From IMG/VR virus record IMGVR_UViG_3300044496_000045: a DNA stretch of 64,000 bases; one strand, given 5' to 3'. The position numbers were made by a program, and so were the translations under genes. Position 1 is the first letter of the stretch; every line of letters begins with the position of its first letter. This DNA is from a virus. Positions 7,618 to 62,300 of this stretch are shown here, in pieces. The notes beneath the pieces are model-generated. The model saw only the letters and a program-made list of their open reading frames with translations, did no database searches and had not been told where the DNA came from.

Positions 7618-10600
7618 ATGGCCAAAACACAGATTCTCGAATACACGATCTGGTTGACCGACGAGGCGCTGGTCACTGCGTACAATGCACAGATGGCCGC
7701 CGGCAACGGGCCGGGGTTGCTGCTGTTCTACTACTCGCCCGCGCTCCAAGCGAACACCTTTGGCGTACTGCGGGCGCCGGAAACGGGCGCGGCGATCGAG
7801 TTCAGCGCGCCCTTCCAGCTCGACACCGAACCGTTTCTCGCGCCGTGTGTGCGATCGCCGTGGTTCACCGATGGCGCCAACTTCCCCACCAACGTCGCGA
7901 AGTTTACGCGCAAGTCCGGTGGGTGGTTCGGGTTGCCGATCCTGTTCGGTGAAACGACGGTGTTCTACTGGGCGGGGAAGTTCGCCTTCTCGCCGCCGTC
8001 TGTCGATTCGCCCGATCCGCCACCGGTCCCGCCTCCTGCCCTGATGGCGCGACGCTGGATCGAGGGCTTCGAGCTACCACGGACGGCGGGACAGCTTGCA
8101 GGCGGCGGTGGCGAGGGCGGCGCCGACGCCTCGCCGAATATCACCCGTGACTCGTCGCGCTCGGCCGATGGCTTTGGGTGTGCCGTGCGCAGTACGACGC
8201 TCGCCACGCGGCACTACGTCATGGAGTACCGCGGCGGTGGAACATCTGATCAACCGTGGTCCTGGGAACGGTTCTACTTTCGTCCGCGGCGCTATGGGGC
8301 CGCAGAAGTCGAAATCTGGGCGTGCGAGAGCCAATCGTCGAATGGCGGCGCACAGGATATGGGCTTCCGGCTGCGGATGGCGCCGAACGGCGGCCTGTTG
8401 GTGTACAGCTTCTCCGGGGTCGCGACGTTGCGGGCGACGGGGCCAGTCATGGCCATCGACACGTGGATCAAGATCGATCTCGTCATTGGGTACAACACCG
8501 AAGTCAACGCGCCACCGACTGCGCCGCCACTCTCGAACTTCGGATCGCTCCGCGTGTACATCAACGGCGTGCAGGTCATGGACGTGCCCCATGTCCTGTT
8601 GAATCCCTTGGCCAACTTCAGCCAACGGCATTACCGCAGCCAAATTGGTCCGCTCGCCGCCAACACAGCGGAGATGGACTACGACGACTGGATCAACGTC
8701 GACTGCCCGACTGCCGAGCCCGATCCCGGCTTTGATCTCCGCACGGCGGATTACGATCTCCTCGAAACACAAACCGACTTCATCGCGGGCACGCATTGCC
8801 AGCTCCTCCAGCCCTCGGACGTTGTCTCGCAAGTCAACTGGGTCGGCGCGTGGCAGCTCGCCCTCCAGCGGCCGATCGAAAATACCGGGACCGTGAATCG
8901 GCTGACGAGTTCGACGTCTGGCGCATCATTGAACCTGACCGCGGATGTCTCTCCGGCGCAACAGCGTGGGGGTGTCGTCGGCATCGGTGCCGTCGTCATG
9001 GGGTGGTACGGGCAGCGCGGCGTGGGAGCGGCCGGTAACGACACGCTCGAAATGGAGCTGGTGTTTGGGGCGGATCCACCAATCACATCATCGCGCAGTG
9101 TCGTTCCACCAGCCGCCAATACCCTCGAATGGCGATCCGTGCTCTACGACGCCGACGCCGTGGATCCGGCGCCTGTGCTCACGGCACTGGAACTGCGGTT
9201 CCTCCATGGGGCGGATGTACTGCAGCGCACGGTCAGTTCGTTACAGGCGGTGGCCGAACAAATTGGGGTGTTCGGGCCTGAAGATACGGCCGCGGCTGAC
9301 TACCCACCGCAGCCGCCGATCTCACCGCACAATTCGGCGTATCCGTTCACGCCATGGGCCACCGGCGGAGCGCCACTGTTCGGCGCGGTGGCGGCGATCA
9401 CCGGCTCCTATCTGAGCGATGGGTTGCCGCTCGATCTGGAGTTCCCCCTGCCGGTGCAGATGTTGTGGATCCGCCGCACGTCGGGGACGGCGGCGCAGAT
9501 GCGGGGCGCGCAGTGGTGGACGTCGCTGCTCACGTCGCACTTCCTCCAGGAACAGCCCATCATCCCCTACGCCGTGCCTATGGCGCTGCGCGATCCAAAC
9601 TTCCCGCCTCCGGTGGCGGAAGACGATCAGGAAATGCAGTTCCTGGTCCGGATTGCCACCAACGATGAACACATCAATGCCGCGGGCGCGACCTACGCCT
9701 ATCTGGCCATCTGCGATCCGGCGGCGCGCTTCGTTCAGTGTGGGGCGTCTGCGCACACCGCACCATTCCCGATCACCGAGCCGCTACCGAATCCGAACTT
9801 TACGCCGGATGCGGGGTTCTTTTTCTCCGAGGATCGTGGGGCGAACGCGCTCATTAGTGCGGCCTACAAGGGGCCGGATCACGCCGCCAATGAAGCGTCC
9901 CTGCTTAGCGGTGGGGCACTCCTCACCAATTATGTGAACTTCGGTGCTGGCGAACTGGACGAGCGGACGAATTTCTTCCCGGTCAACACGGAGCAAACCT
10001 CCTACGTTCTCTTCCGCCACAGTGACGGGAACGTCGGCACCGGATCTGAGGCGACGCTGTTTCAGACCGCGGTGTATGTCGGGGATGGCGTCAACCCTCG
10101 AACGATCGATCTGGATCCGCTGTTTGGTGTGCGGCCGATGTGGGGTATCGGGATCGGGCCAGCCGCCAACGGCGGACGGCAGCGCGATCCGAGTCACACC
10201 GGGACGACGAGCACGAACATGGGCACGGGCGAGATCGTGGCGGCCAACGGCATCCGCGGGGGTGGCATCGATCAGATCATTGTCGGTTCGGATCTGAATG
10301 CGAACGGTGTCACCTACTACGTCTTCGTCATCCCTGGGTGTGGCGGTGAGGGCGAAGGCGGCTGGGGGGTTGAAAGCACCTGCTATGTCGTCGAGCCGGA
10401 CTCGGCCTTCGATCCGGGATGGATCGAGCCCGAGGAAATCGACCCCGGTGGCGGCGACGATGTACCGGCCATCCCGCCGATTGACTTCAGCAATCCCGAG
10501 CGGTTGCGGCTGACCTACATCGATCGGATGGTGTACTTCGACTACGCCGACACCGAGGGCGATGGCCACACGTTGCTGTTCGAGCCGCTGTACAAGCGGT

Positions 10601-11709: not shown

Positions 11710-12857
11710 TGCCCGTCACGCTCCCGACGACGTTCGGGAAAGCTGATTACAACGTCGTTCAGTCCCTCCAGAAACTCGCCGACGCCTGCAATACGCTTGA
11801 ACAGCAGCTCACGGCCGCACGAGGGCGCGCGACGCTCGCGGAGGTACAGGCACTCGAAGCGGCGCTGAATGCGCTGACGGCGCGCGTCAACGCCTTGAGT
11901 CGGGAGAGCAGCGAGGGCGGCGGTGGCGGCAGTGGGACGGTCGTCGTCGATCCGGCCGGCGCGCTCGACGGCGATGGATCGTCCGGGAGCCCACTAGCGG
12001 TCAAGGTCGACGGCTCGTCGATCATCATCAACGGATCGAATGAGCTGGAAGCGCCCGCGGCAGCCGGCGGCATCACGCAACTGACCGGTGACGTCACCGC
12101 TGGGCCTGGGAGCGGATCGCAGGCGGCGACGATCGCGAACAATGCGGTCACGTCGGCGAAGATCAACGCCGGTGCCGTCACGACGGCGAAGATCACCGAC
12201 GCCAATGTCACCTACGCCAAGATCCAGAACGTCTCCGCGTCGCTGCGGATCCTCGCGCGCAAGTCGGGTGGCGCAGGCGTCATCGAGGAAGCGACGATCG
12301 CCGAGATCCTGGAGTTCATCGCCGGCTCCGCGCAAGGCGACATTCTGATCCGCAACGGGACCGTCTGGACGCGACTGGGGATCGGCGCCGCCGGCACCGT
12401 ACTGACATCGGCCGGCGCTGGGGCGGATCCGTCGTGGGTGGCCCCCGCGGGAGGCACGCCCAACCCCAACCACGCGCAGGTGATCTACAACCACTCGCAG
12501 ATTCTCGCGGCCAACACCACCCCGGTCGAAATGATCCCTGCACCGGGGGCCGGGAAACTCGTGAGCTTGTTTGCGCTCCACTCTGTCAAGCAGACGACGG
12601 CGGGGGGCTATGCGACCAACCCCAACTGGTCGGCGCGGTACAACGGGGTGGCGACCGACCTGTGTACCGCACAGTCGATCACCATCACCGCCGCCGACAA
12701 GCGGTATCGCAAGTTCACGACGACGGACCACAACATCACCGCTCCACCATTCAACACCAGCGTCGTGATGCGCGGGACGGCCGATACGACGGCGGGCAAC
12801 GCGGCGAACTATATCGTGTTCGAGGCCGTCTACAGCCTCATTACGGACGGTCCCTAG
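11709..12857 (+). CDS. Tail fibre/needle protein
   Basis: Start at TAATG overlap; N-terminal coiled coil, Gly-rich linker, ITQLTGDVT and AVTxAKI repeats common in tail fibres. Confidence 0.7.
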   Translation: MPVTLPTTFGKADYNVVQSLQKLADACNTLEQQLTAARGRATLAEVQALEAALNALTARVNALSRESSEGGGGGSGTVVVDPAGALDGDGSSGSPLAVKVDGSSIIINGSNELEAPAAAGGITQLTGDVTAGPGSGSQAATIANNAVTSAKINAGAVTTAKITDANVTYAKIQNVSASLRILARKSGGAGVIEEATIAEILEFIAGSAQGDILIRNGTVWTRLGIGAAGTVLTSAGAGADPSWVAPAGGTPNPNHAQVIYNHSQILAANTTPVEMIPAPGAGKLVSLFALHSVKQTTAGGYATNPNWSARYNGVATDLCTAQSITITAADKRYRKFTTTDHNITAPPFNTSVVMRGTADTTAGNAANYIVFEAVYSLITDGP

Positions 12858-21523: not shown

Positions 21524-21764
21524 GCAGCTCGGCCTCCTCCAGCCGCTCCAGATGTTTGGTGATCCGATCGGCGACTTCGGCCGCGAACGTCGCGATGTCC
21601 GGCTTGCTGAACATGGTCGCCACGCCGGCTGTGATCGTCGCCGATATGAAATCGCGCACGATCGCACGGGCCAGCCCACGCCGATAGAAGATGCGGGACT
21701 CGGACACCGCCTGCTTGTAGGCTTCGACTTCCTTTATGCGACGTGCCGCGCCAGGAACCGCCAT
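21513..21764 (-). CDS. Hypothetical protein (83 aa)
   Basis: GGAGGA RBS; coupled into the operon. Confidence 0.65.
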   Translation of the reverse strand: MAVPGAARRIKEVEAYKQAVSESRIFYRRGLARAIVRDFISATITAGVATMFSKPDIATFAAEVADRITKHLERLEEAELHVH

Positions 21765-22879
21765 TCCTCCTCCTCGCCTTCCCCTTCGCGGGGCAGTACT
21801 GGGTCATCCGGGCCGGCCGACAGCACGTACGCTGGCAGCGTCAGATCCTCCATGCCGCTGAGATTCAGCGGTACGTCGTGCCCGGTTTTGATCTTGATCT
21901 TGATCTGCTCGTCTTCGTCGATGTGGGGTGCCCAGTTCCGCCCTTGCTTGGCGCTGACCCCGATGGGGAGGTACTCGCCCCAGCCCCACGCGACGGGAAT
22001 GGGTAGATACGTGCTGGGCCGCTGCATGACGGTCGCCACCATCTCCACCACCCGATCCCAGCAACGATTAGGGATATGGAGTAACAGAGAATCGTGAATC
22101 GGGGAAAGTAATGGAGTCCGACCAAAGTAGCAATCGCCAATATAGAAAGGGGACCAAGGGCAGAATAGATCAAGCTCCGCCTCCTTGAGGCGCCCGGCCG
22201 CAATCGACTGCGGATAGAACGCGATCACGCGGTTGCCATCGCCACCGAAGTCCACCTTGAAGTACCGCCCGTGCATCTGCACGATGCGGTGCGCGCGCGT
22301 CGGATCCTTCAACCACTTGCGCGCGGTGAACTCATTGATCGGTTTGTAGTTGAGTACGTCCCAGAACCAATGCTGGTACCCGTAGGGGTGATCCCACATC
22401 GTCGCGGGGATGCCGGGCATGGTTGGGCCGCCGAGTCTCCCCGCTTCGCGCGCCTGTTTCCGCAGGGCCTGATGCCACTTCGGCAGATCCGGCGCCAGCG
22501 CGTAGTAGTACGTCTCGAACTCCTGGGCGATCTTGAGGGTCGGAAAGAACTCCGGGAACTTCTCGACTTGCCCGTAGGCGGTCATCCCGAAGTTCTTCGC
22601 GTGGACCGTGCGCTTCGAGGTGTCGTATTCCTTCGGATAGCCTTTTTTGATCGTGTCGAGATTGGCTTTGACGATCAGATCCTGCTGAGAGAGATCGACA
22701 GGCTTACCGACCTTCAGCGATGTCACCGCTGCGTGCATGCCGAGACGGGCGAGGCGGATGTATTGCTTGGCGCGGTCGGCATCGAAGCCGTGCGTCCACA
22801 GGCAGCGGCCGGTTAAGACGGCTTCGATCCCGGAGAAGTCGACTTCGAGGATCCGGCAGGAGGTATCGGCAGTGATCAT
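21734..22879 (-). CDS. polA: Family A DNA polymerase, C-terminal catalytic part
   Basis: Motif A LEVDFSGIEAV, motif B-like KRTVHAKNFGM, YPQSIAA, motif C IHDSLLL. Confidence 0.88.
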   Translation of the reverse strand: MITADTSCRILEVDFSGIEAVLTGRCLWTHGFDADRAKQYIRLARLGMHAAVTSLKVGKPVDLSQQDLIVKANLDTIKKGYPKEYDTSKRTVHAKNFGMTAYGQVEKFPEFFPTLKIAQEFETYYYALAPDLPKWHQALRKQAREAGRLGGPTMPGIPATMWDHPYGYQHWFWDVLNYKPINEFTARKWLKDPTRAHRIVQMHGRYFKVDFGGDGNRVIAFYPQSIAAGRLKEAELDLFCPWSPFYIGDCYFGRTPLLSPIHDSLLLHIPNRCWDRVVEMVATVMQRPSTYLPIPVAWGWGEYLPIGVSAKQGRNWAPHIDEDEQIKIKIKTGHDVPLNLSGMEDLTLPAYVLSAGPDDPVLPREGEGEEEEWRFLARHVA

Positions 22880-23073
22880 TCGGTGATGCGCTGAATGAAA
22901 AATTGCTTGTGCTGCCAGCTCTGGAACGCCGCGAGATTGAAGATCAGCGTCACGTCATAGCTCCGGATGTGACTGACGGGACCACGTTCGGTGAGCGTGC
23001 GTTCGACATCGGCGGCGAACATGAGTGCATCGGTGCTGTGCCGCATGCCGCGGAACCATTCGCGGACCGTCAC
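22876..23073 (-). CDS. Hypothetical protein (65 aa) between the polymerase halves
   Basis: Overlapping start/stop junctions on both sides. Confidence 0.7.
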
Positions 23074-23690
23074 TTCGTCACCAGCAACGTCGCCAAGTGT
23101 TTCGATCGCGACTGGTGCCGCAGCTTCCGCATTGCCTTGCCTTCAATCTGCCGGATCCGTTCTTGCGTGACGGCAAAGTGCTGGCCTACCTCGTGTAAGG
23201 TTCGCTCCCCATTGCCGTCGAGTCCGTATCGTAGTGTGAGCACGCCAGCTTCGCGCTTCGTGAGCGTGGCCAGCACCTGTTGAATCAAGGCGCTCCGCTC
23301 CTGCTGCTCCATGAGTTCGTCCGGTCCGGCTTCGAGCGCCAATTGCCGCCGCGCGGCCATGAGGGGCAGGAACGTCGCCGCCTCCATTTCAATCGCCGCC
23401 TTCGGATTGATGACAGTTGCGTAGAGGGCCGGCGGGAACAATTCGTCCACGGATAGCCCCAGGATCGTACAGAGACGCTGGGCGAGTGGACGAATGACAA
23501 GTCGACGTGTCGTCGTCAGTTGGCCTCGCGTGCCGTAGGGGCTCACCGTAAGATTCAAGAAACTCCCCACCGCCCCCTGATCGATCGTATGTACCCGGCA
23601 GAACGCGGACACACTGGGGTATTCATCGAAAATCGCGTGCCAGAGCACGTTGTTCCGCGCACGCAGTTCGATGCGAAGATCCTTGGTCAC
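23070..23690 (-). CDS. XRE-like HTH plus sigma70 region 4 domain protein
   Basis: C-terminal [50 protein letters not shown] closely matches RpoD region 4; N-terminal SVSAFC...[18 protein letters not shown] is HTH-like; no region 2. Confidence 0.85.
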
Positions 23691-24157
23691 TTCGTCACCA
23701 CAACAAACCGATCATCCAGATCCCACAGCAGTGGCTGCACTTGATCCCAGGTCAGCCCGCCGTTGCCGCAGCCCGGCCGAGGCAGCACGACGCGGCGCCA
23801 CTCCAAGCGATCCGCCAGCGCGATCAGCTCGTACGCGCTCTGTTGAATCAGCGCGAGATCCGCCAGCTCCATCCATTCGTGCTTCACGGGGAAGACGACC
23901 AACGTCCACGGCGGTGGTGGCACGAGTACCCCAACATGATTGCCGTACGCGGTGAGGTAGTGGCCGAGCCGACGCTGGAGCGTCACCGGCCGTCGCCCCG
24001 GCGTCGTGTGTTGCGCGTTGTAGCGGTTCGCGGCTTCGAGCGCGCAGCCCCGGCCCATGACGCCCAGCCCGCGGCCGGTGATGGTGCCGTTGGTCGTGAT
24101 GACGACGGCATCGGCAGTCGCGCCGGCTGCCCAGAGATCGGTGCGGTGTTCAATCAT
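23687..24157 (-). CDS. Macrodomain protein (DarG/Poa1p-like)
   Basis: [45 protein letters not shown]. Confidence 0.85.
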
Positions 24158-24323
24158 CGTCGTCCCTATCCTCCAGGATGGCGATCAGTTCCGCCTCGTC
24201 CTGATCGATCACGCGCGTGTTGTGTTCCGCGCAGGCCCACACGCCGGGGATCCCCTTCTCGTTCTGGCGGTACAGTGTGATCGGATCCTGCGGCGGCCCG
24301 AGCCCACAGACGTGACACTTCAT
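24150..24323 (-). CDS. Small zinc-finger-like protein (57 aa)
   Basis: MKCHVCG...WACAEH; ATGA overlap with the polymerase N-part stop. Confidence 0.65.
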   Translation of the reverse strand: MKCHVCGLGPPQDPITLYRQNEKGIPGVWACAEHNTRVIDQDEAELIAILEDRDDDD

Positions 24324-26497
24324 GCGGTACCCCACTTCGCCTGCCACGCGGCGAACTCCTCGGGCGTGATGGACGGCGGCGGTTGATCGCGGGCTTCGAT
24401 GCAGCGTCGGAACCCAGACGCCAATCCGTCAGGGCCGGCTTTGTCAGCGACGACGTTCTGCAGGTTCGGGTTGGTGCAACTATCACGCAGTGTCGACGGC
24501 TTGCACGACAGCTCCGGATGCACGCGATCATCCGCGTCCAGGCGCGACAACGTGCCCACCGCGTAGGTGCTGTCCACCTTTTGTACAGCCTTCCAATCCA
24601 TTTCGAGCTGGAAGAATGGGTCATCAGCGTGCTCTTTCTTCAGTTGCTCCATCGCCTTTTTGTTGGTGGTGGCGCGGCCTTTTTTGCGATCGATCGGCGC
24701 GTCGATCCCTTGCTGCGCGAGGTAGGCGAGGATCTGCTGCGGGGCGTCCGGGTTGAAGGGGAGCTGCCAGAAGTAGCGAGCCTGCTGAACAGTTCGCTGC
24801 TCAAGATTTGGTGTTGGGCGTACAACTTCCACCACAGGCTGCCCGCGCGGGCGCTTTGGTTGAGCGGGGCGTGGGCAGCGATGCTTCGCTCCAACTGCCT
24901 CCGCATGGCACGTAAGGCAGACACGGACGCTGATGTCGATATTGCGCTGAACAAGTGTGACTCCCTCCAGCATGTACGCCATCTTCGCTTCGCCGCCGCC
25001 CTTTTTCGGTTTGCCGAGGATCGAGGCGGGCGGTTGCCGCTGTGGCATCTTCCGTTGTCCCTGACAGACAGGGCACACAACGTCATCGAACTCACTTTGC
25101 TTCTCGCCGTCACACGCCCAGCAGGTTTCCATCGGCCGCTTCGCGTACCCGAGCTTTGGCTTCAGCACGCCTTGCGCGGCCGTCTCTTTCATCCGGGCTA
25201 ACACACTCCCGAGCTTCCGCTGTAGATCCTCATGGAACGCCTGCAGCTCCACCCGGTTGATCGGCACACCCATTTCGGTCGCTGGTCGCAGCACGTATTG
25301 ATCGCGTTCGTGCCAGTCGCGCATGAACACATCCCAGATGCCGTACTTGATCGCATCCTTCAGTAGCCACATGCAGACGCGCCAGTTCTGCAGGCCGTCC
25401 GCCGCCGCGTACACGCCTTCCTTTTCTTTATCCTTGCCCCAGTGCTTCCAGGCACCGAAGTCGCTGGCCATCGGCGCGACAAAGCCCAGCCCGCGAGGCA
25501 GATCGCTTTGTAGGTAATGCCAGACCCACATGCCGTCGATCGCCATGATCCCGGTGAGGGTATGGCCGGCCTGCCGCAGCTTGTCCCAATCGACGTACTT
25601 GTTCCACAGCCACACCCAACCGCCGAGACGCGCGAGCCCGGACAGCAGGCGTTCGGTGTGGCCGATATAGGGACCGCGGTACGGCACGGTCATCCCCATC
25701 ACCGAATCGTTCCCGACATTCACGCGCGTGATCAGCGTCCCCGATCGCTCGACTTCGGATTCGTCGGCGCCCATCTTCTCGGGGAACTCGGTATCGAGCG
25801 ACAGATGTGTCCCATCAGGATCAGTGGTTGCCCGCTCAAGGTGACGATCAACCCAGGCGCCGTACACGTCGGGAACGGGATCGACAATGAGCTGGGCCGT
25901 GGAGCGCGTAAAGCCGGACTGACTAATCCGATGTGCCAGACGTACATCTTGTGTCACCACGTCGAGCAGGTTCATCGCTCCACGTTGTAAATGCGATGGG
26001 TGGTAGGACGGGACGATCCAGTACCGGTTATCGGCACTGCGCGTCACGGTCCCGTGGAAGTCTTTCACCGCGACGCCAGGGACGCCGGCCAGCCCTAAGA
26101 TCGCGTCGAGCGCGGTGGCCCCAAGCGGCATGACGACGCCGTTGTCCGGCACGCTGTCGAGCAGCGGTTGGAGATATTGCCGACACATGGCGATCGCGTG
26201 CTGTTCCCAGGGGGCGCCGGCTAGGAAGTCATTGGGCGGCCGGCAGCTCACAATGTTGCCGATCCGCACATGCTGGCGATCGATCCCGGCCCGGTGGAAA
26301 ATCCGGCTCAGGACGCCCCCGGCCGAGCCGTAGAAGGGCTCTCCGGCGACCGCCTCCTCATAGCCGAGGGCTTCGCCGATGGCCGTCAGGCGAGCCCCCA
26401 GCGGTCCAGACGGGGGTGCGTAGCCGAAGCCGATGGTTTCCAGGCTGCAGCCCGCGCAGCCGGCCGGCTTGAGGTACTTAGGATTCTGGGCTGGCAT
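24320..26497 (-). CDS. polA: DNA polymerase A N-terminal part: UDG family-4-like domain, 3'-5' exonuclease, thumb
   Basis: GCAGCSL, IGEALG..E...GEPFYGSAG, SCRPP, YHPS (UDG); LSLDTE, WNKYVD, YAAAD (Exo I-III); ends NPNLQN...FRRCIEA just before where motif A should be. Confidence 0.88.
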   Translation of the reverse strand: MPAQNPKYLKPAGCAGCSLETIGFGYAPPSGPLGARLTAIGEALGYEEAVAGEPFYGSAGGVLSRIFHRAGIDRQHVRIGNIVSCRPPNDFLAGAPWEQHAIAMCRQYLQPLLDSVPDNGVVMPLGATALDAILGLAGVPGVAVKDFHGTVTRSADNRYWIVPSYHPSHLQRGAMNLLDVVTQDVRLAHRISQSGFTRSTAQLIVDPVPDVYGAWVDRHLERATTDPDGTHLSLDTEFPEKMGADESEVERSGTLITRVNVGNDSVMGMTVPYRGPYIGHTERLLSGLARLGGWVWLWNKYVDWDKLRQAGHTLTGIMAIDGMWVWHYLQSDLPRGLGFVAPMASDFGAWKHWGKDKEKEGVYAAADGLQNWRVCMWLLKDAIKYGIWDVFMRDWHERDQYVLRPATEMGVPINRVELQAFHEDLQRKLGSVLARMKETAAQGVLKPKLGYAKRPMETCWACDGEKQSEFDDVVCPVCQGQRKMPQRQPPASILGKPKKGGGEAKMAYMLEGVTLVQRNIDISVRVCLTCHAEAVGAKHRCPRPAQPKRPRGQPVVEVVRPTPNLEQRTVQQARYFWQLPFNPDAPQQILAYLAQQGIDAPIDRKKGRATTNKKAMEQLKKEHADDPFFQLEMDWKAVQKVDSTYAVGTLSRLDADDRVHPELSCKPSTLRDSCTNPNLQNVVADKAGPDGLASGFRRCIEARDQPPPSITPEEFAAWQAKWGTA

Positions 26498-41441: not shown

Positions 41442-41471
41442 AGTATCGACGGGATCCGCACGAGCTGTCAA
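41442..41471 (-). promoter_or_regulatory. Leftward sigma70-like promoter
   Basis: Minus strand TTGACA-18 nt-GATACT upstream of the RBS of 41402. Confidence 0.5.
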
Positions 41472-41519: not shown

Positions 41520-41564
41520 GTCAAATCATTGACATTGACAGCGTGCTTTTCATCGACGTAGGCT
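41520..41564 (+). promoter_or_regulatory. GTCAA-N4-TTGAC operator overlapping a rightward promoter
   Basis: GTCAAATCATTGAC 41520-41533; tandem TTGACATTGACA; TTGACA(41535)-18 nt-TAGGCT(41559). Confidence 0.65.
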
Positions 41565-41617: not shown

Positions 41618-42556
41618 ATGCCTCCAGCCTTCCCCGATCCCATTCCCGGCATCATCCCATTCGGCACCGTCACGATTTTTGCCGGCGCCCCAGGCGTCGG
41701 GAAGACCGCGATGCTCGCCGACTGGATTGTCCGCTGGCGGGACGGCCGCCCGATTTGGGGGCATTCGACCAACCCACCGTCCCAGTTCTGCTATTTGGCC
41801 GCCGATCGGCAATGGGCGAGTCATCAGCAGTGGTTCAACCGGGCTGGATACCCGGACATTCCACGGTATTCGGTTGCCGACGATCCCCTGTTTGACCTAA
41901 AAGAACTGCTAAAGCCCTACAATGCCCTGGATCTGTTCCGTCGCGCGCTGGATAAGGTGAATAATGGCACCTATCCGATCCCAGGCGCGCATGTGTTTGT
42001 CGATCCTGTCTCCCCGGTGTTCATTGCGGGATCCCCGAATAACTCCAGGGACGTGGCGCGTACCCTCCTCGGCATGTCCCGCGAATGTCAGCAACGAGAG
42101 ATCAATCTGACGTGCGCTGCACACTTTGGCAAGCAGCTCGCGGATAAAAACTCCCGGTACGCCCGTCCACAGGACCGTATTGCCGGATCGACCGCCTTTT
42201 CAGGATTTTCAGACACCCAAATCTACCTTATTGACCCCGAACTCCCCGATCATCCGTTCCATGTACTGGGCTGGAACCCGCGGCTTGCCCAGCCGGAAGA
42301 GTTTACCTGCACACGGGATTACAAAACTGGGCTATTCATCCCGTACGACTTTATTAAAGACGACGAAACGGCCTCACAGATCCTGGATTGCTTCGAGGCC
42401 ACCGGGACCACGTCACTTGCGGTCATCGTCGAGCGTGCCCAGCTCCAACACGGCCACCACCGCATGGTCGTGCGCCGGGCGCTCGATCGGCTCCTGACGC
42501 AAGGGCGAATCTGCAAGCTCGGCCGCGGCAAGTTCCAGCGCGTCCGCATCCATTAA
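41618..42556 (+). CDS. RepA/AAA_25-like replicative helicase with C-terminal winged helix
   Basis: TIFAGAPGVGKT, VFVDPVS, AAHFGK, AGSTAFSG; C-terminal TSLAVIVERA...VVRRALDRL..QGRI.K.GRGKF. Confidence 0.75.
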   Translation: MPPAFPDPIPGIIPFGTVTIFAGAPGVGKTAMLADWIVRWRDGRPIWGHSTNPPSQFCYLAADRQWASHQQWFNRAGYPDIPRYSVADDPLFDLKELLKPYNALDLFRRALDKVNNGTYPIPGAHVFVDPVSPVFIAGSPNNSRDVARTLLGMSRECQQREINLTCAAHFGKQLADKNSRYARPQDRIAGSTAFSGFSDTQIYLIDPELPDHPFHVLGWNPRLAQPEEFTCTRDYKTGLFIPYDFIKDDETASQILDCFEATGTTSLAVIVERAQLQHGHHRMVVRRALDRLLTQGRICKLGRGKFQRVRIH

Positions 42557-48977: not shown

Positions 48978-49571
48978 TTAGATCCCTCCGTCGAGCTTAC
49001 CCGCGCATTCCGGCCCTAGCCCGGATTCTATGCTCGACGGGACTGTGAGCGCACGGCCGCAACGCGCACACCGGCCGATATGGTAGAAGGTCGCCGGATC
49101 GATCGGCAGCCCGCGCCAGATCCGGCCGATCGCCCAGTTGAACGCCTTGATCGGTGTGCTGTCGAGTGTGTACTTGCTGGCGCGCGTGATCCGTACCTGC
49201 CCGGTCTGGACGTTGAGCAAACCGCCGTACGTGTAATCGCTCAGGTTATCCGGACCAGTCAACAGCGATACGAAGTACGCCGGCTGTGTGTACTGGCTGC
49301 CGGGCTTCGGCTCTGCCTTGCTGACCTTGAACGTGTATCGGCTATCCTTCCCCTGCAAGGTAAAGATCGCCTTACCTGCCAGTACAAACCGTCTGCACGC
49401 GTCGCCAGCGATCGGGACTTCGGCCGGCTGTCCAGGTGTCGCGGGCTGCCGATCGTTGACTGGATCGGTGTAATCCTCTGTCCCGTCGTATTGACGCCGG
49501 CTATCGGTCATCTCGAAAGCTGGGCCGCCGACGATCGCGTGTTGAAGCTGGGCTAACACTCTGTGATCCAT
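48978..49571 (-). CDS. DUF6011 domain protein
   Basis: C-terminal GRCARCGRALTVPSSIESGLGPECA; AGAGGAG RBS before MDHRVL. Confidence 0.8.
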   Translation of the reverse strand: MDHRVLAQLQHAIVGGPAFEMTDSRRQYDGTEDYTDPVNDRQPATPGQPAEVPIAGDACRRFVLAGKAIFTLQGKDSRYTFKVSKAEPKPGSQYTQPAYFVSLLTGPDNLSDYTYGGLLNVQTGQVRITRASKYTLDSTPIKAFNWAIGRIWRGLPIDPATFYHIGRCARCGRALTVPSSIESGLGPECAGKLDGGI

Positions 49572-49640
49572 CGTCTGATCTCCTCTACGCCGGACCGTTG
49601 CAGCCGGCCTGTTGTGCGCTACTCTATCGCGCATAGCGCC

Positions 49641-49670
49641 ACGTTAATCCAGCTATCGGCCACGTGTCAA
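49641..49670 (-). promoter_or_regulatory. Leftward sigma70-like early promoter
   Basis: Minus strand TTGACA-18 nt-TAACGT upstream of the DUF6011 gene. Confidence 0.6.
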
Positions 49671-49718
49671 CGCCTCACTAGTGCCCGATCGCAGATCCCG
49701 TGCAAAAGCGTATAGACC

Positions 49719-49750
49719 GTCAAGCAATTGACAGGCGTCAAATCGTTGAC
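49719..49750. promoter_or_regulatory. Two perfect GTCAA-N4-TTGAC operators in tandem
   Basis: GTCAAGCAATTGAC 49719-49732; GTCAAATCGTTGAC 49737-49750. Confidence 0.7.
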
Positions 49751-49859
49751 ACCTGTGTGACAGGATTGTAAGTGGCAGGAATGCCGCACGATCGGGCAAG
49801 ATCGGGCGATCTATCCGGCCGGAGGCATGCGCGCGCCATACCTTCCCCCGTGAGTCTCG

Positions 49860-50065
49860 CTAGGCTGTCCAGGTGCCTGATCATAGTGCCAGCTTAACGC
49901 ATGGCGATCGCCAGTCTGCTAGTCTGTACGCACCTGCAGACTAGGCTAGGCTGTCCCGTCCAGGTGTACGCACGGGCTAGATCGCGCCAGTTACCAGTAC
50001 TGCACACCACACCACGGTACCGTCTAGTACTGCACGCGACTGCACATAGGTGCCTATAGATGTAC
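49860..50065. repeat. Patch of short imperfect repeats rich in CTAG/GTAC/TGCA
   Basis: CTAGGCTGTCC x2, AGTACTGCAC x2, ACATAGGTGC x2; six CTAG in 49860-50027. Confidence 0.55.
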
Positions 50066-50146
50066 ATAGGTGCATGTATTGTCCAAGGGTACCCCGGTCC
50101 GACCCCACGTGAGCCCGATCCAGCGAGAGGTAGTATTTTTTCACCC

Positions 50147-50230
50147 GTCAATTTTTTCACTGTCAATTTTTTGGCACCTGCCCAGGTTCTGCACGAGATC
50201 AGGGCACACACCCACCGTCAGCACATTGAC
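50147..50230. promoter_or_regulatory. Three one-mismatch GTCAA-N4-TTGAC operators upstream of the late operon
   Basis: GTCAATTTTTTCAC 50147-50160; GTCAATTTTTTGGC 50162-50175; GTCAGCACATTGAC 50217-50230, followed by TTGACATTGACA. Confidence 0.6.
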
Positions 50231-50269
50231 ATTGACAGAACGCACAAGATTGGCGAGACTCGCACCACG

Positions 50270-50434
50270 ATGGACGTGAATACCGCGATGTTGCTGTATC
50301 TGCGCGATCGCTATGCGTCGGTGGCCGGTGATCTCACGACCCTCCTGACGCGGTACCTGAACACCGAAGTGACCGCCGATTCGGCCACGGCCCGGTTTCA
50401 GTTCCTGATCCAGGAGGCGCTGGCGGCGGCGTAG
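50270..50434 (+). CDS. Small helical protein (54 aa), first rightward gene
   Basis: MDVNTAMLLYLRDRY...; directly after the operator cluster. Confidence 0.55.
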   Translation: MDVNTAMLLYLRDRYASVAGDLTTLLTRYLNTEVTADSATARFQFLIQEALAAA

Positions 50435-62077: not shown

Positions 62078-62116
62078 GTCATTTGCTTGACACGTGACAA
62101 TTGGTCTGCATACACT
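62078..62116 (+). promoter_or_regulatory. Promoter overlapped by a one-mismatch operator
   Basis: GTCATTTGCTTGAC 62078-62091; TTGACA(62087)-18 nt-TACACT(62111). Confidence 0.65.
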
Positions 62117-62150: not shown

Positions 62151-62300
62151 ATGGCACGCAAGTCAGCGAAAAAGAGTCCCGGTGGCGGCCCAGGCGTCTC
62201 GACGATGGGCCAAGTGAAGACGACACAGACGCCGGTGTTCGGCCAGCGTGTCGCGGGCAAGCGATCGTCCGGCAAGTCCGGTCGCAGCGGGCGTCGGTAA
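62151..62300 (+). CDS. Very basic 49-aa peptide
   Basis: GGGAGG RBS; MARKSAKKSPGG...GKSGRSGRR. Confidence 0.7.
   Translation: MARKSAKKSPGGGPGVSTMGQVKTTQTPVFGQRVAGKRSSGKSGRSGRR

Follow-up and report, generated by a model that had tools for sequence, protein, structure and literature searches.

Inverted TTGAC palindromes at rightward promoters of a soil phage behave as conserved operators and are probably not read by the phage's own sigma region-4 protein

Copies of the palindrome GTCAA-N4-TTGAC were analysed in the window (the whole 64-kb stretch of DNA under study, from a soil phage of ~68 kb), and we conclude from their distribution and conservation that they are probably functional, conserved protein-binding operators at promoters. 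They behave as operators because the half-sites are conserved, the spacers are free to vary and copies recur at orthologous positions in relatives. The best explanation, to which we give about an even chance of being right, is a clade-wide regulator that occludes or contacts the -35 region of rightward promoters.

Perfect copies were located by a pattern scan of the window at 41520, 49719 and 49737 (three against 0.05 expected), and nine copies were present when up to one mismatch was allowed (against 0.88 expected); neither count was ever reached in shuffled sequences. One-mismatch copies were intergenic at 50147, 50162, 50217 and 62078 and lay within genes at 11886 and 27505, the genic ones being about the number expected by chance. 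Gene calling by codon usage, with training on the long ORFs of the window itself, gave 85 genes and 5,108 intergenic bases, and seven of the nine palindromes with at most one mismatch fell into the intergenic 8% of the window (binomial P = 6e-7). The coordinates and sequences of the seven palindromes given by an earlier, sequence-only reading of this DNA were matched exactly on rescanning, and the palindrome was found to be enriched against shuffles; its further statement that no copy lies inside genes is correct for the seven listed sites but not for the two one-mismatch genic copies. Judged from the relatives, the palindrome unit is 16 bp, CGTCAA-N4-TTGAC(G/A).

The window is phage DNA, with tail genes running rightward from 1 to 19.5 kb, replication and early genes running leftward from 19.5 to 49.6 kb, and a late, packaging and capsid block running rightward from 50.27 kb. 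Rfam and tRNA scans of the window returned no RNA genes. The nearest deposited relatives by TerL were two Tunturiibacter (Acidobacteriota) phages at 29% identity (PMC11924767), and the control region had no nucleotide-search match among deposited phages. Metagenome homologues numbered ~180 for the late-operon protein and 205 for the polymerase fragment. Relatives were reached via neighbouring proteins; the two used most below are L031, a Logan contig of 66,186 bp with a late-operon protein 73% identical to that of the window, and G001, an IMG/VR contig whose AAA_25 protein is 60% identical.

One leftward and four rightward promoters were assigned putatively from sequence and conservation. All palindrome-bearing promoters face right, and the palindromes overlap or abut the -35 hexamers of the rightward promoters at 41535, 49746, 50232 and 62087. 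Since four TTGACA promoter-like sites, three of them leftward, lack an inverted half (12858 on the plus strand; 41466, 46945 and 49665 on the minus strand), placing the palindrome at all main promoters, as had been done, was an overstatement. The reported overlap with -35 boxes holds at 49737 and 62078, where the right half is the putative -35 hexamer; the palindromes at 41520 and 50217, however, abut the core -35.

Operators O1 (ccGTCAAGCAATTGACa, 49719..49732) and O2 (gcGTCAAATCGTTGACa, 49737..49750) are both perfect palindromes, and the right half of O2 forms the -35 of the putative promoter P_R1 (49746..49774, plus strand; TTGACA 49746-49751, N17, TAAGTG 49769-49774, as read from the sequence), which has a weak -10 and would transcribe into a non-coding region of ~500 nt. 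The P_R1 block GACAGGATTGTAA is kept in L031, and a similar TTGACA-N17-CAATAT is found at the site in G001. The putative leftward promoter P_L (49641..49670, minus strand; TTGACA 49670-49665, N18, TAACGT 49646-49641) carries no palindrome, and its TGTCAA and -10 region are kept in L031.

A further perfect operator, gcGTCAAATCATTGACa (41520..41533), is centred at ~-44.5 at the promoter P_AAA and abuts the -35 of the putative core promoter of the AAA_25 gene (41535..41564, plus strand; TTGACA 41535-41540, N18, TAGGCT 41559-41564). This gene, for an AAA_25 (RecA/DnaB-like) ATPase (41618..42556, plus strand), is the sole rightward gene within the leftward early block, and the best-conserved operator position lies upstream of it. 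The AAA_25 promoter of L031 reads TTGACA-N18-TAGACT followed by the same CGCTTGCGC block as in the window, and has no palindrome. At P_late, the one-mismatch palindrome GTCAGCACATTGAC (50217..50230) has the same geometry as the 41520 site and a block in common with it (CATTGACATTGACAG); both palindromes end in an extra TTGACA, 6 bp upstream of the conserved core TTGACA. The putative core late promoter (50232..50260, plus strand; TTGACA 50232-50237, N17, GAGACT 50255-50260) is kept as TTGACAGAACGCAC...(G/C)AGACT in L031, L062 and L063, and a 54-aa ORF lies downstream with its ATG at 50270. The right half of the one-mismatch palindrome GTCATTTGCTTGAC (62078..62091) is the -35 of the putative capsid-module promoter (62087..62116, plus strand; TTGACA 62087-62092, N18, TACACT 62111-62116), a block that is kept in L006.

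The two remaining intergenic sites, 50147 and 50162, are included in T-tract direct repeats (TATTTTTTCAC, GTCAATTTTTTCAC and GTCAATTTTTTGGC; 50131..50175), where they are units of a 15-16-bp direct repeat, GTCAATTTTTT(C/G). The unit at 50162 is kept in L031 and L062/L063 and is the only T-tract unit so conserved; T-tracts without GTCAA are present in L019, L032 and L033. The -10 hexamers of the window, picked by eye at 17-18 bp, were TAGGCT, TAAGTG, GAGACT and TACACT, three of which are conserved in relatives. The palindrome-bearing promoters were missing from the output of a strict consensus promoter scan because their -10 hexamers fell below its threshold.

The right halves are, or adjoin, -35 boxes, and TTGACA alone is intergenic in 11 of its 19 copies in the window, as would be expected if the palindromes were back-to-back -35 hexamers of divergent sigma70 promoters and had no separate reader. 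This reading was rejected because no -10 is found by the left halves: in the window and L031 they have no acceptable -10 hexamer 16-18 bp leftward, the consensus scan puts leftward promoter-like sites elsewhere (for example at 41471), and in 117 IMG/VR array palindromes a -10 at 16-18 bp was no commoner than at other offsets. We therefore hold it to be highly improbable. An FNR-type register, TTGAC-N4-GTCAA, between O1 and O2 was also rejected, since L031 has N5 at that point and keeps the N4 within each unit, and an N4-type hairpin promoter was dropped as no giant virion RNA polymerase gene was present.

For conservation, L031 could be aligned over the full length of the ~640-bp non-coding region, column identity averaging 77%. 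Over O1 and O2 together, 20 of 20 half-site bases were identical as against three of eight spacer bases; one of four spacer bases differed in O1 and four of four in O2, the half-sites remaining intact. In G001, a control region of ~730 bp with the same layout as in the window contains perfect copies at 7806 and 8416, and one-mismatch copies lie at the AAA_25 promoter and at the equivalent of the capsid promoter, the latter being GTCAGCCCCTTGAC and situated 30 bp before the core -35; no copy of the reversed control pattern was found in G001. A single perfect copy is present in the complete genome G002, within the orthologous control region. At the AAA_25 promoter, the palindrome of L010 is identical to that of the window, the palindrome with its 6-bp offset to the core -35 also occurs in L012 and G001/L009, and L019 has two copies; in G005 a single perfect copy lies ~76 bp from the end of the AAA_25 match. 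These are the features of Cro/CI-type operators, namely short palindromes, conserved half-sites, a free spacer and overlap with putative promoters.

Other positions are less widely shared. The late-promoter palindrome at 50217 falls into a 13-bp gap in L031 and is absent from L062 and L063, and on these alignments it is therefore specific to the window lineage. The capsid promoter of L006 (82% nucleotide identity) has GCCAG in place of the left half and keeps both -35 and -10, and the comparisons with L006, L031, L062 and L063 show core promoters conserved independently of the palindromes. More distant relatives (L032 and 21 of 23 IMG/VR genomes) have few or no sites. We conclude from these comparisons that the O1/O2 and AAA_25 positions are probably old and that the copy at 50217 would be recent, as would in part the one at 62078.

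The most widely kept position adjoins AAA_25 (in the window, L010, L012, G001, L019 and probably G005), and within the control region lie iteron-like direct repeats, GTCAA-bearing T-tracts and an element that most of the clade conserves. Together with a C-terminal extension of the AAA_25 protein past its ATPase domain, this would suit replication control, in which an initiator, be it the AAA_25 ATPase or another protein, would regulate itself by binding inverted repeats at its own promoter and would also bind related repeats in an origin within the 49.6-50.3-kb region, in the manner of plasmid Rep proteins with operators and iterons. We consider this improbable. AAA_25 homologues were found in 16 of 19 complete relatives, most of them without the motif; G002 and G005 have the motif although the C-terminal parts of their AAA_25 proteins do not match that of the window; L031 has O1 and O2 but lacks a palindrome at its AAA_25 promoter; and replication control does not readily account for the palindrome at the capsid promoter. 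The ATPase itself was rejected as reader because presence of its gene does not track the motif. An Atlas search with the AAA_25 protein added only the description 'AAA_25/DnaB_C-like'.

The reader proposed by the sequence-only reading was P0001, a 206-aa protein (23070..23690, minus strand) in which an XRE-like N-domain is joined to a region 4 of RpoD type. That the phage encodes a protein with sigma region 4 was confirmed: residues 139-192 matched Pfam Sigma70_r4 (E 5.7e-17), the best PDB sequence matches were all to region 4 of the primary sigma factors RpoD/SigA (E ~1e-20), the PHROGs match was phrog_351, 'RNA polymerase sigma factor', and tblastn gave ~60% identity to RpoD of many bacteria. 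In what we take to be the recognition helix, only the position of E. coli R584 is altered, to Q, and the residues presumed to match E. coli sigma70 E585, R586, R588 and Q589 are intact. Residues 1-130 contain no region 2 and had zero Pfam matches at E <= 1, and no region-2 gene was present among the neighbours of the P0001 gene. For most of residues 11-90 the N-domain was predicted confidently (block-mean pLDDT 82-97), and its top nine fold matches, PDB 1RIO being among the fold matches, were all XRE/lambda-repressor-like HTH domains (Foldseek probability up to 0.98, but weak E values of at least 0.13 and TM 0.6-0.7). A profile search against PDB sequences gave one match, 'lambda repressor-like protein', at E 0.077.

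Dimerisation of P0001 is supported by structure prediction. The homodimer test was passed with 0.56 against 0.00 for the best control, a mark that 21 of 30 known homodimers attained, as against 0 of 23 proteins whose structures were solved as single chains, and the predicted interface comprises residues 2-17 (the N-terminal strand) and 86-111. The P0001 family has 17 members, all of ~200 aa, with highly conserved N-domains; the DNA-contacting residues of the recognition helix vary, and the position of Q589 is the only one of them that is invariant across the family. Pfam searches of ~60 window proteins, and PHROGs searches of 10 of those, gave P0001 as the sole recognisable transcription regulator and returned no stand-alone XRE protein. 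Literature searches found neither an XRE-region-4 dimer nor a GTCAA-N4-TTGAC operator described.

A model can be drawn in which P0001 dimerises via its XRE-like N-domain, sets two captured RpoD region-4 domains on inverted TTGAC half-sites, and competes with or replaces host sigma region 4 at the rightward promoters as an early/late switch. It would be favoured by the group-1-like region 4 with the residues matching E585, R586, R588 and Q589 intact, by the identity of the half-site with the -35 core, by the homodimer prediction, by the standing of P0001 as the only recognisable regulator in the window, and by the extra palindromes at 41520 and 50217, which are missing in the sigma4-negative L031. 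We nevertheless regard the model as unlikely.

The two parts of a split family-A DNA polymerase flank the P0001 gene, a macrodomain gene and two 65-aa ORFs. The corresponding cassette of L034, which is the same contig as L031, contains a macrodomain gene and one 65-aa gene only; in 19 contigs with a 96%-identical polymerase C-terminal piece the upstream ORFs are of 79, 75 and 90 aa and an HNH gene lies downstream; and the cassette of the L019/L027 phage has two small genes. On these comparisons the P0001 gene is situated in a hypervariable cassette, which counts against the model. By tblastn at E <= 1, the gene was absent from L031/L034 (syntenic polymerase cassette; 34 kb examined), from 30.6 kb of the L019/L027 phage, a stretch that takes in the syntenic polymerase split, and from the relatives with the 96%-identical polymerase piece. 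The table of P0001 homologues held zero clusters from the 66,186-bp or 67,774-bp contigs, and the family profile matched 0 of 23 IMG/VR relatives, G002 included, 19 of which are at least 90% complete. Conversely, the distant phages L003, L029 and L030 encode a family member and lack the motif in the 12-17 kb fetched around the gene, and L006, which shares its sample with the sigma4-positive contig L002, has a capsid promoter without the inverted half.

Gene and sites therefore do not travel together as the proposal would have them do: L031/L034, G002 and L019/L027 have sites, perfect ones among them and two at the AAA_25 promoter in L019, and no P0001 gene in the stretches named. From sites kept where the gene is missing it follows that some other reader exists, and P0001 is, as judged from these genomes, not required for the sites. 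With the recognition-helix residues varying across the family and R584 replaced by Q in P0001 itself, the assignment of P0001 as reader is unsupported; the notion of a sigma4 dimer keeps its predicted homodimer and loses its link to the sites. P0001 is probably not the reader; its gene is an accessory one of a variable cassette. The protein may bind the sites in the window phage as well, and its action may have been laid, in this lineage only, over operators of an older network. In the fullest version of that idea, which we think distinctly unlikely, a host primary-sigma region 4 mounted on a dimerising XRE-like scaffold would read the inverted -35 boxes added at 41520 and 50217, just before the core -35 of the replication and late promoters, these boxes overlying an older operator network with a different reader. 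If true, the region-4 dimer would be a regulator that mimics RNA polymerase's own promoter-recognition module.

Tandem forms, defined as two palindrome units 3-6 bp apart, were also sought outside the clade. IMG/VR held 87 such stretches, which reduced to 43 non-redundant contig groups with GC from 29% to 66%; some of the contigs are pelagiphage relatives, with four units in a row upstream of terL, and the groups are unrelated to the window except for one weak TerL match. The sigma4-XRE family was absent from the fetched stretches of all 43 groups and was thus encoded at no IMG/VR tandem-array locus, a further point against P0001, and the genes flanking viral arrays had no Pfam family in common. 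Bacterial genomes (596 Gb) contained 86 array stretches, clustered by lineage and with mixed neighbours, and many of the bacterial arrays are portions of longer hairpins. Because arrays occur without a sigma4-XRE gene and without a -10 at 16-18 bp, the palindrome appears to act as a factor-binding site elsewhere, and evidently has been used so repeatedly, by different proteins. That it resembles the -35 core does not reveal which protein reads it.

The bacterial arrays, found in lineage-specific clusters near glyoxalase, BlaI-type, XRE and MarR genes, raise the possibility that a host-encoded factor reads the sites and that the phage clade borrows a host regulon signal. The Pfam and PHROGs searches, which yielded no phage-encoded reader, would agree with this, as would the resemblance of the core TCAA-N4-TTG to the IHF consensus WATCAA-N4-TTR. 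We find a host factor decidedly improbable, as arrays are several-fold commoner per base in viral contigs than in bacterial genomes (with the size of IMG/VR estimated) and IHF cannot occupy both of two sites 18 bp apart.

Under the preferred reading, a clade-wide regulator, the palindromes would be operators for a symmetric, probably dimeric, sequence-specific DNA-binding protein. The set would comprise the tandem pair O1/O2 on the left margin of the ~640-bp control region between early and late genes and one operator each before the AAA_25 replication gene, the late operon and the capsid module. The bound protein would contact the host sigma factor's region 4 or compete with it, and its binding would set when rightward transcription (replication, late and structural) occurs with respect to that of the leftward early genes; the variable centres of the sites, at ~-38.5, -44.5 and -56.5, would suit -35 occlusion, and hence repression, best. 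The reader is most likely a protein common to the phage clade and less likely a host factor; both its identity and the direction of regulation are what we infer. Counting against a clade-wide reader, Pfam and PHROGs gave no candidate besides P0001, and the scarcity of sites in the distant relatives, as scanned, would also speak against it; the window's extra sites at 41520 and 50217, compared with L031, look like additions and would suit a lineage-specific reader. Single-protein scans of IMG/VR with the 277-aa and DUF6011 proteins gave no matches.

The analysis defines a cis-regulatory layout, of one leftward and four rightward putative promoters, a conserved operator and a structured control region, for a large group of ~60-70-kb soil phages with few deposited relatives. 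As relatives with and without the sigma4 gene have the same operators, the idea that P0001 is the reader is directly testable and is currently argued against; P0001 is of interest in its own right as a protein, although the evidence does not tie it to the sites. Behind the recurrence of the tandem palindrome in dozens of unrelated viral contigs there may be an unannotated family of DNA-binding proteins with a wide distribution.

Among known systems, the late activators of the RinA/ArpU type are small phage proteins with a C-terminal half similar to sigma region 4, and they bind DNA ahead of the late (terS) operon (PMC3152322). The likeness of these activators to region 4 is limited, whereas P0001 has a near-canonical RpoD region 4 and a predicted XRE-like dimerising N-domain. 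Targeting of sigma region 4, as in sigma appropriation by T4 AsiA/MotA or in the contact that lambda cI at OR2 makes with region 4, places control at or beside the -35 (PMC6755090, PMC2988021). The operators here that are centred at ~-42 to -45 and abut region 4 resemble lambda OR2 at PRM; unlike T4, the phage has no AsiA/MotA homologues and itself carries a copy of region 4, not a binder of it. SigO-RsoA of B. subtilis is a two-subunit sigma factor and resembles P0001 in having a ~200-aa protein with region 4 and without region 2; the P0001 gene differs in having no adjoining region-2 partner, and its product in its XRE-like N-domain and predicted dimer.

The stoperators of mycobacteriophage L5 gp71 and the conserved inverted repeats of phiC31 are comparable in that one repressor-type site is repeated in intergenic DNA genome-wide, and the L5 site GGTGGMTGTCAAG also has TGTCAA, overlapping a -35. 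The L5 sites are asymmetric and number ~30, whereas those described here number 5-7, are symmetric and all lie at rightward promoters, and no homology to gp71 or the phiC31 repressor was found. The lambdoid and 434 switches, in which Cro/CI HTH dimers bind 14-17-bp palindromes in a divergent control region, differ in that no CI/Cro homologue was found here, the window shows no sign of lysogeny genes, copies also occur at distant promoters (41.5 kb and 62 kb), and the half-site is the -35 core. Their likeness lies in the 5-N4-5, 14-bp palindrome with a free spacer, in the tandem sites ~18 bp apart between divergent early promoters, and in the overlap with -35 hexamers; the geometry of GTCAA-N4-TTGAC is also that of the 434 operator ACAAG-N4-CTTGT. 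The operator is thus of a familiar kind, with dimer-type palindromes on or beside -35 boxes, a set in the divergent region and distal copies.

The early/late control region is a non-coding stretch of about 640 bp (window 49635-50269), and was aligned with its counterpart in L031, a 66,186-bp Logan contig from a close relative, at 77% mean column identity. Iteron-like repeats are present within it in the window, with GCTAGGCTGTCC occurring three times and AGTACTGCAC and CATAGGTGC twice each. Its core block of 34 nt, GTACATAGGTGCATGTATTGTCCAAGGGTACCCC (window 50062-50095), shows no differences among the window, L031 and the relative loci L062 and L063, and the core of this block, ATTGTCCAAGGGT, was also found in L032, L033, L019 and the complete IMG/VR genome G002, and in an altered form in G001; in every case it is followed downstream by T-tracts and then by the late promoter. 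The region may serve as an origin or a packaging site, or it may give rise, by transcription from the putative rightward promoter P_R1, to a structured leader or non-coding RNA. The product of the first leftward gene adjoining it (window 48978-49634, minus strand) carries a DUF6011 domain at its C-terminus (E 2e-15) and is a candidate early regulator; L031, L032 and L033 also have a DUF6011 gene at the equivalent position.

At the late promoter, the -10 element GAGACT ends only 9 nt from the ATG of the first late ORF, of 54 aa (window 50255-50272), and the late mRNA of the window phage would therefore, judging from the sequence, start nearly leaderless. In L031, a 21-nt insertion with a purine-rich stretch lies between the late -10 and the start codon. 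Directly behind the capsid-module promoter, a 49-codon ORF (window 62152-62300) was missed by the gene caller used on the window; it is kept in L006, and G001 has a similar ORF. The predicted product is a very basic peptide, rich in Gly, Ser, Lys and Arg.

The gene for the family-A DNA polymerase is in two pieces (window 21734-26497), one of 725 aa that includes UDG and one of 381 aa, and the gap between them is a hotspot for accessory genes, which differ from phage to phage. It contains a macrodomain gene, the sigma4-XRE gene and two 65-aa ORFs in the window, a macrodomain gene and a 65-aa ORF in L034 (the same contig as L031), and two small genes in L027; in relatives with 96%-identical polymerase, the second piece has three small ORFs upstream and an HNH gene after it. 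The gap is also a frequent break point of close relatives' contigs. For P0001, the 206-aa sigma4-XRE protein (gene at window 23070-23690), the predicted homodimer interface comprises residues 2-17 and 86-111, and lies where the family is best conserved (DLRxELRARNNxLWHAIFD), not in sigma region 4. The linker (residues 103-122) was predicted with low confidence, so that in the modelled dimer it would act as a flexible tether for both region-4 domains.

Unrelated viral contigs (IMG/VR loci L069-L155), ranging from 29% to 66% GC, carry tandem arrays of the palindromic operator GTCAA-N4-TTGAC, with 2-4 units spaced 17-20 bp apart; with redundancy removed, these contigs form 43 groups. Further array loci are bacterial (L156-L235). 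A gene family common to the flanks of the viral arrays was looked for and none was found. Frequently, the viral arrays occupy the space immediately behind a stop codon or precede terS/terL, and by our own estimate of the chance expectation (approx. 0.3) their occurrence is far above chance.
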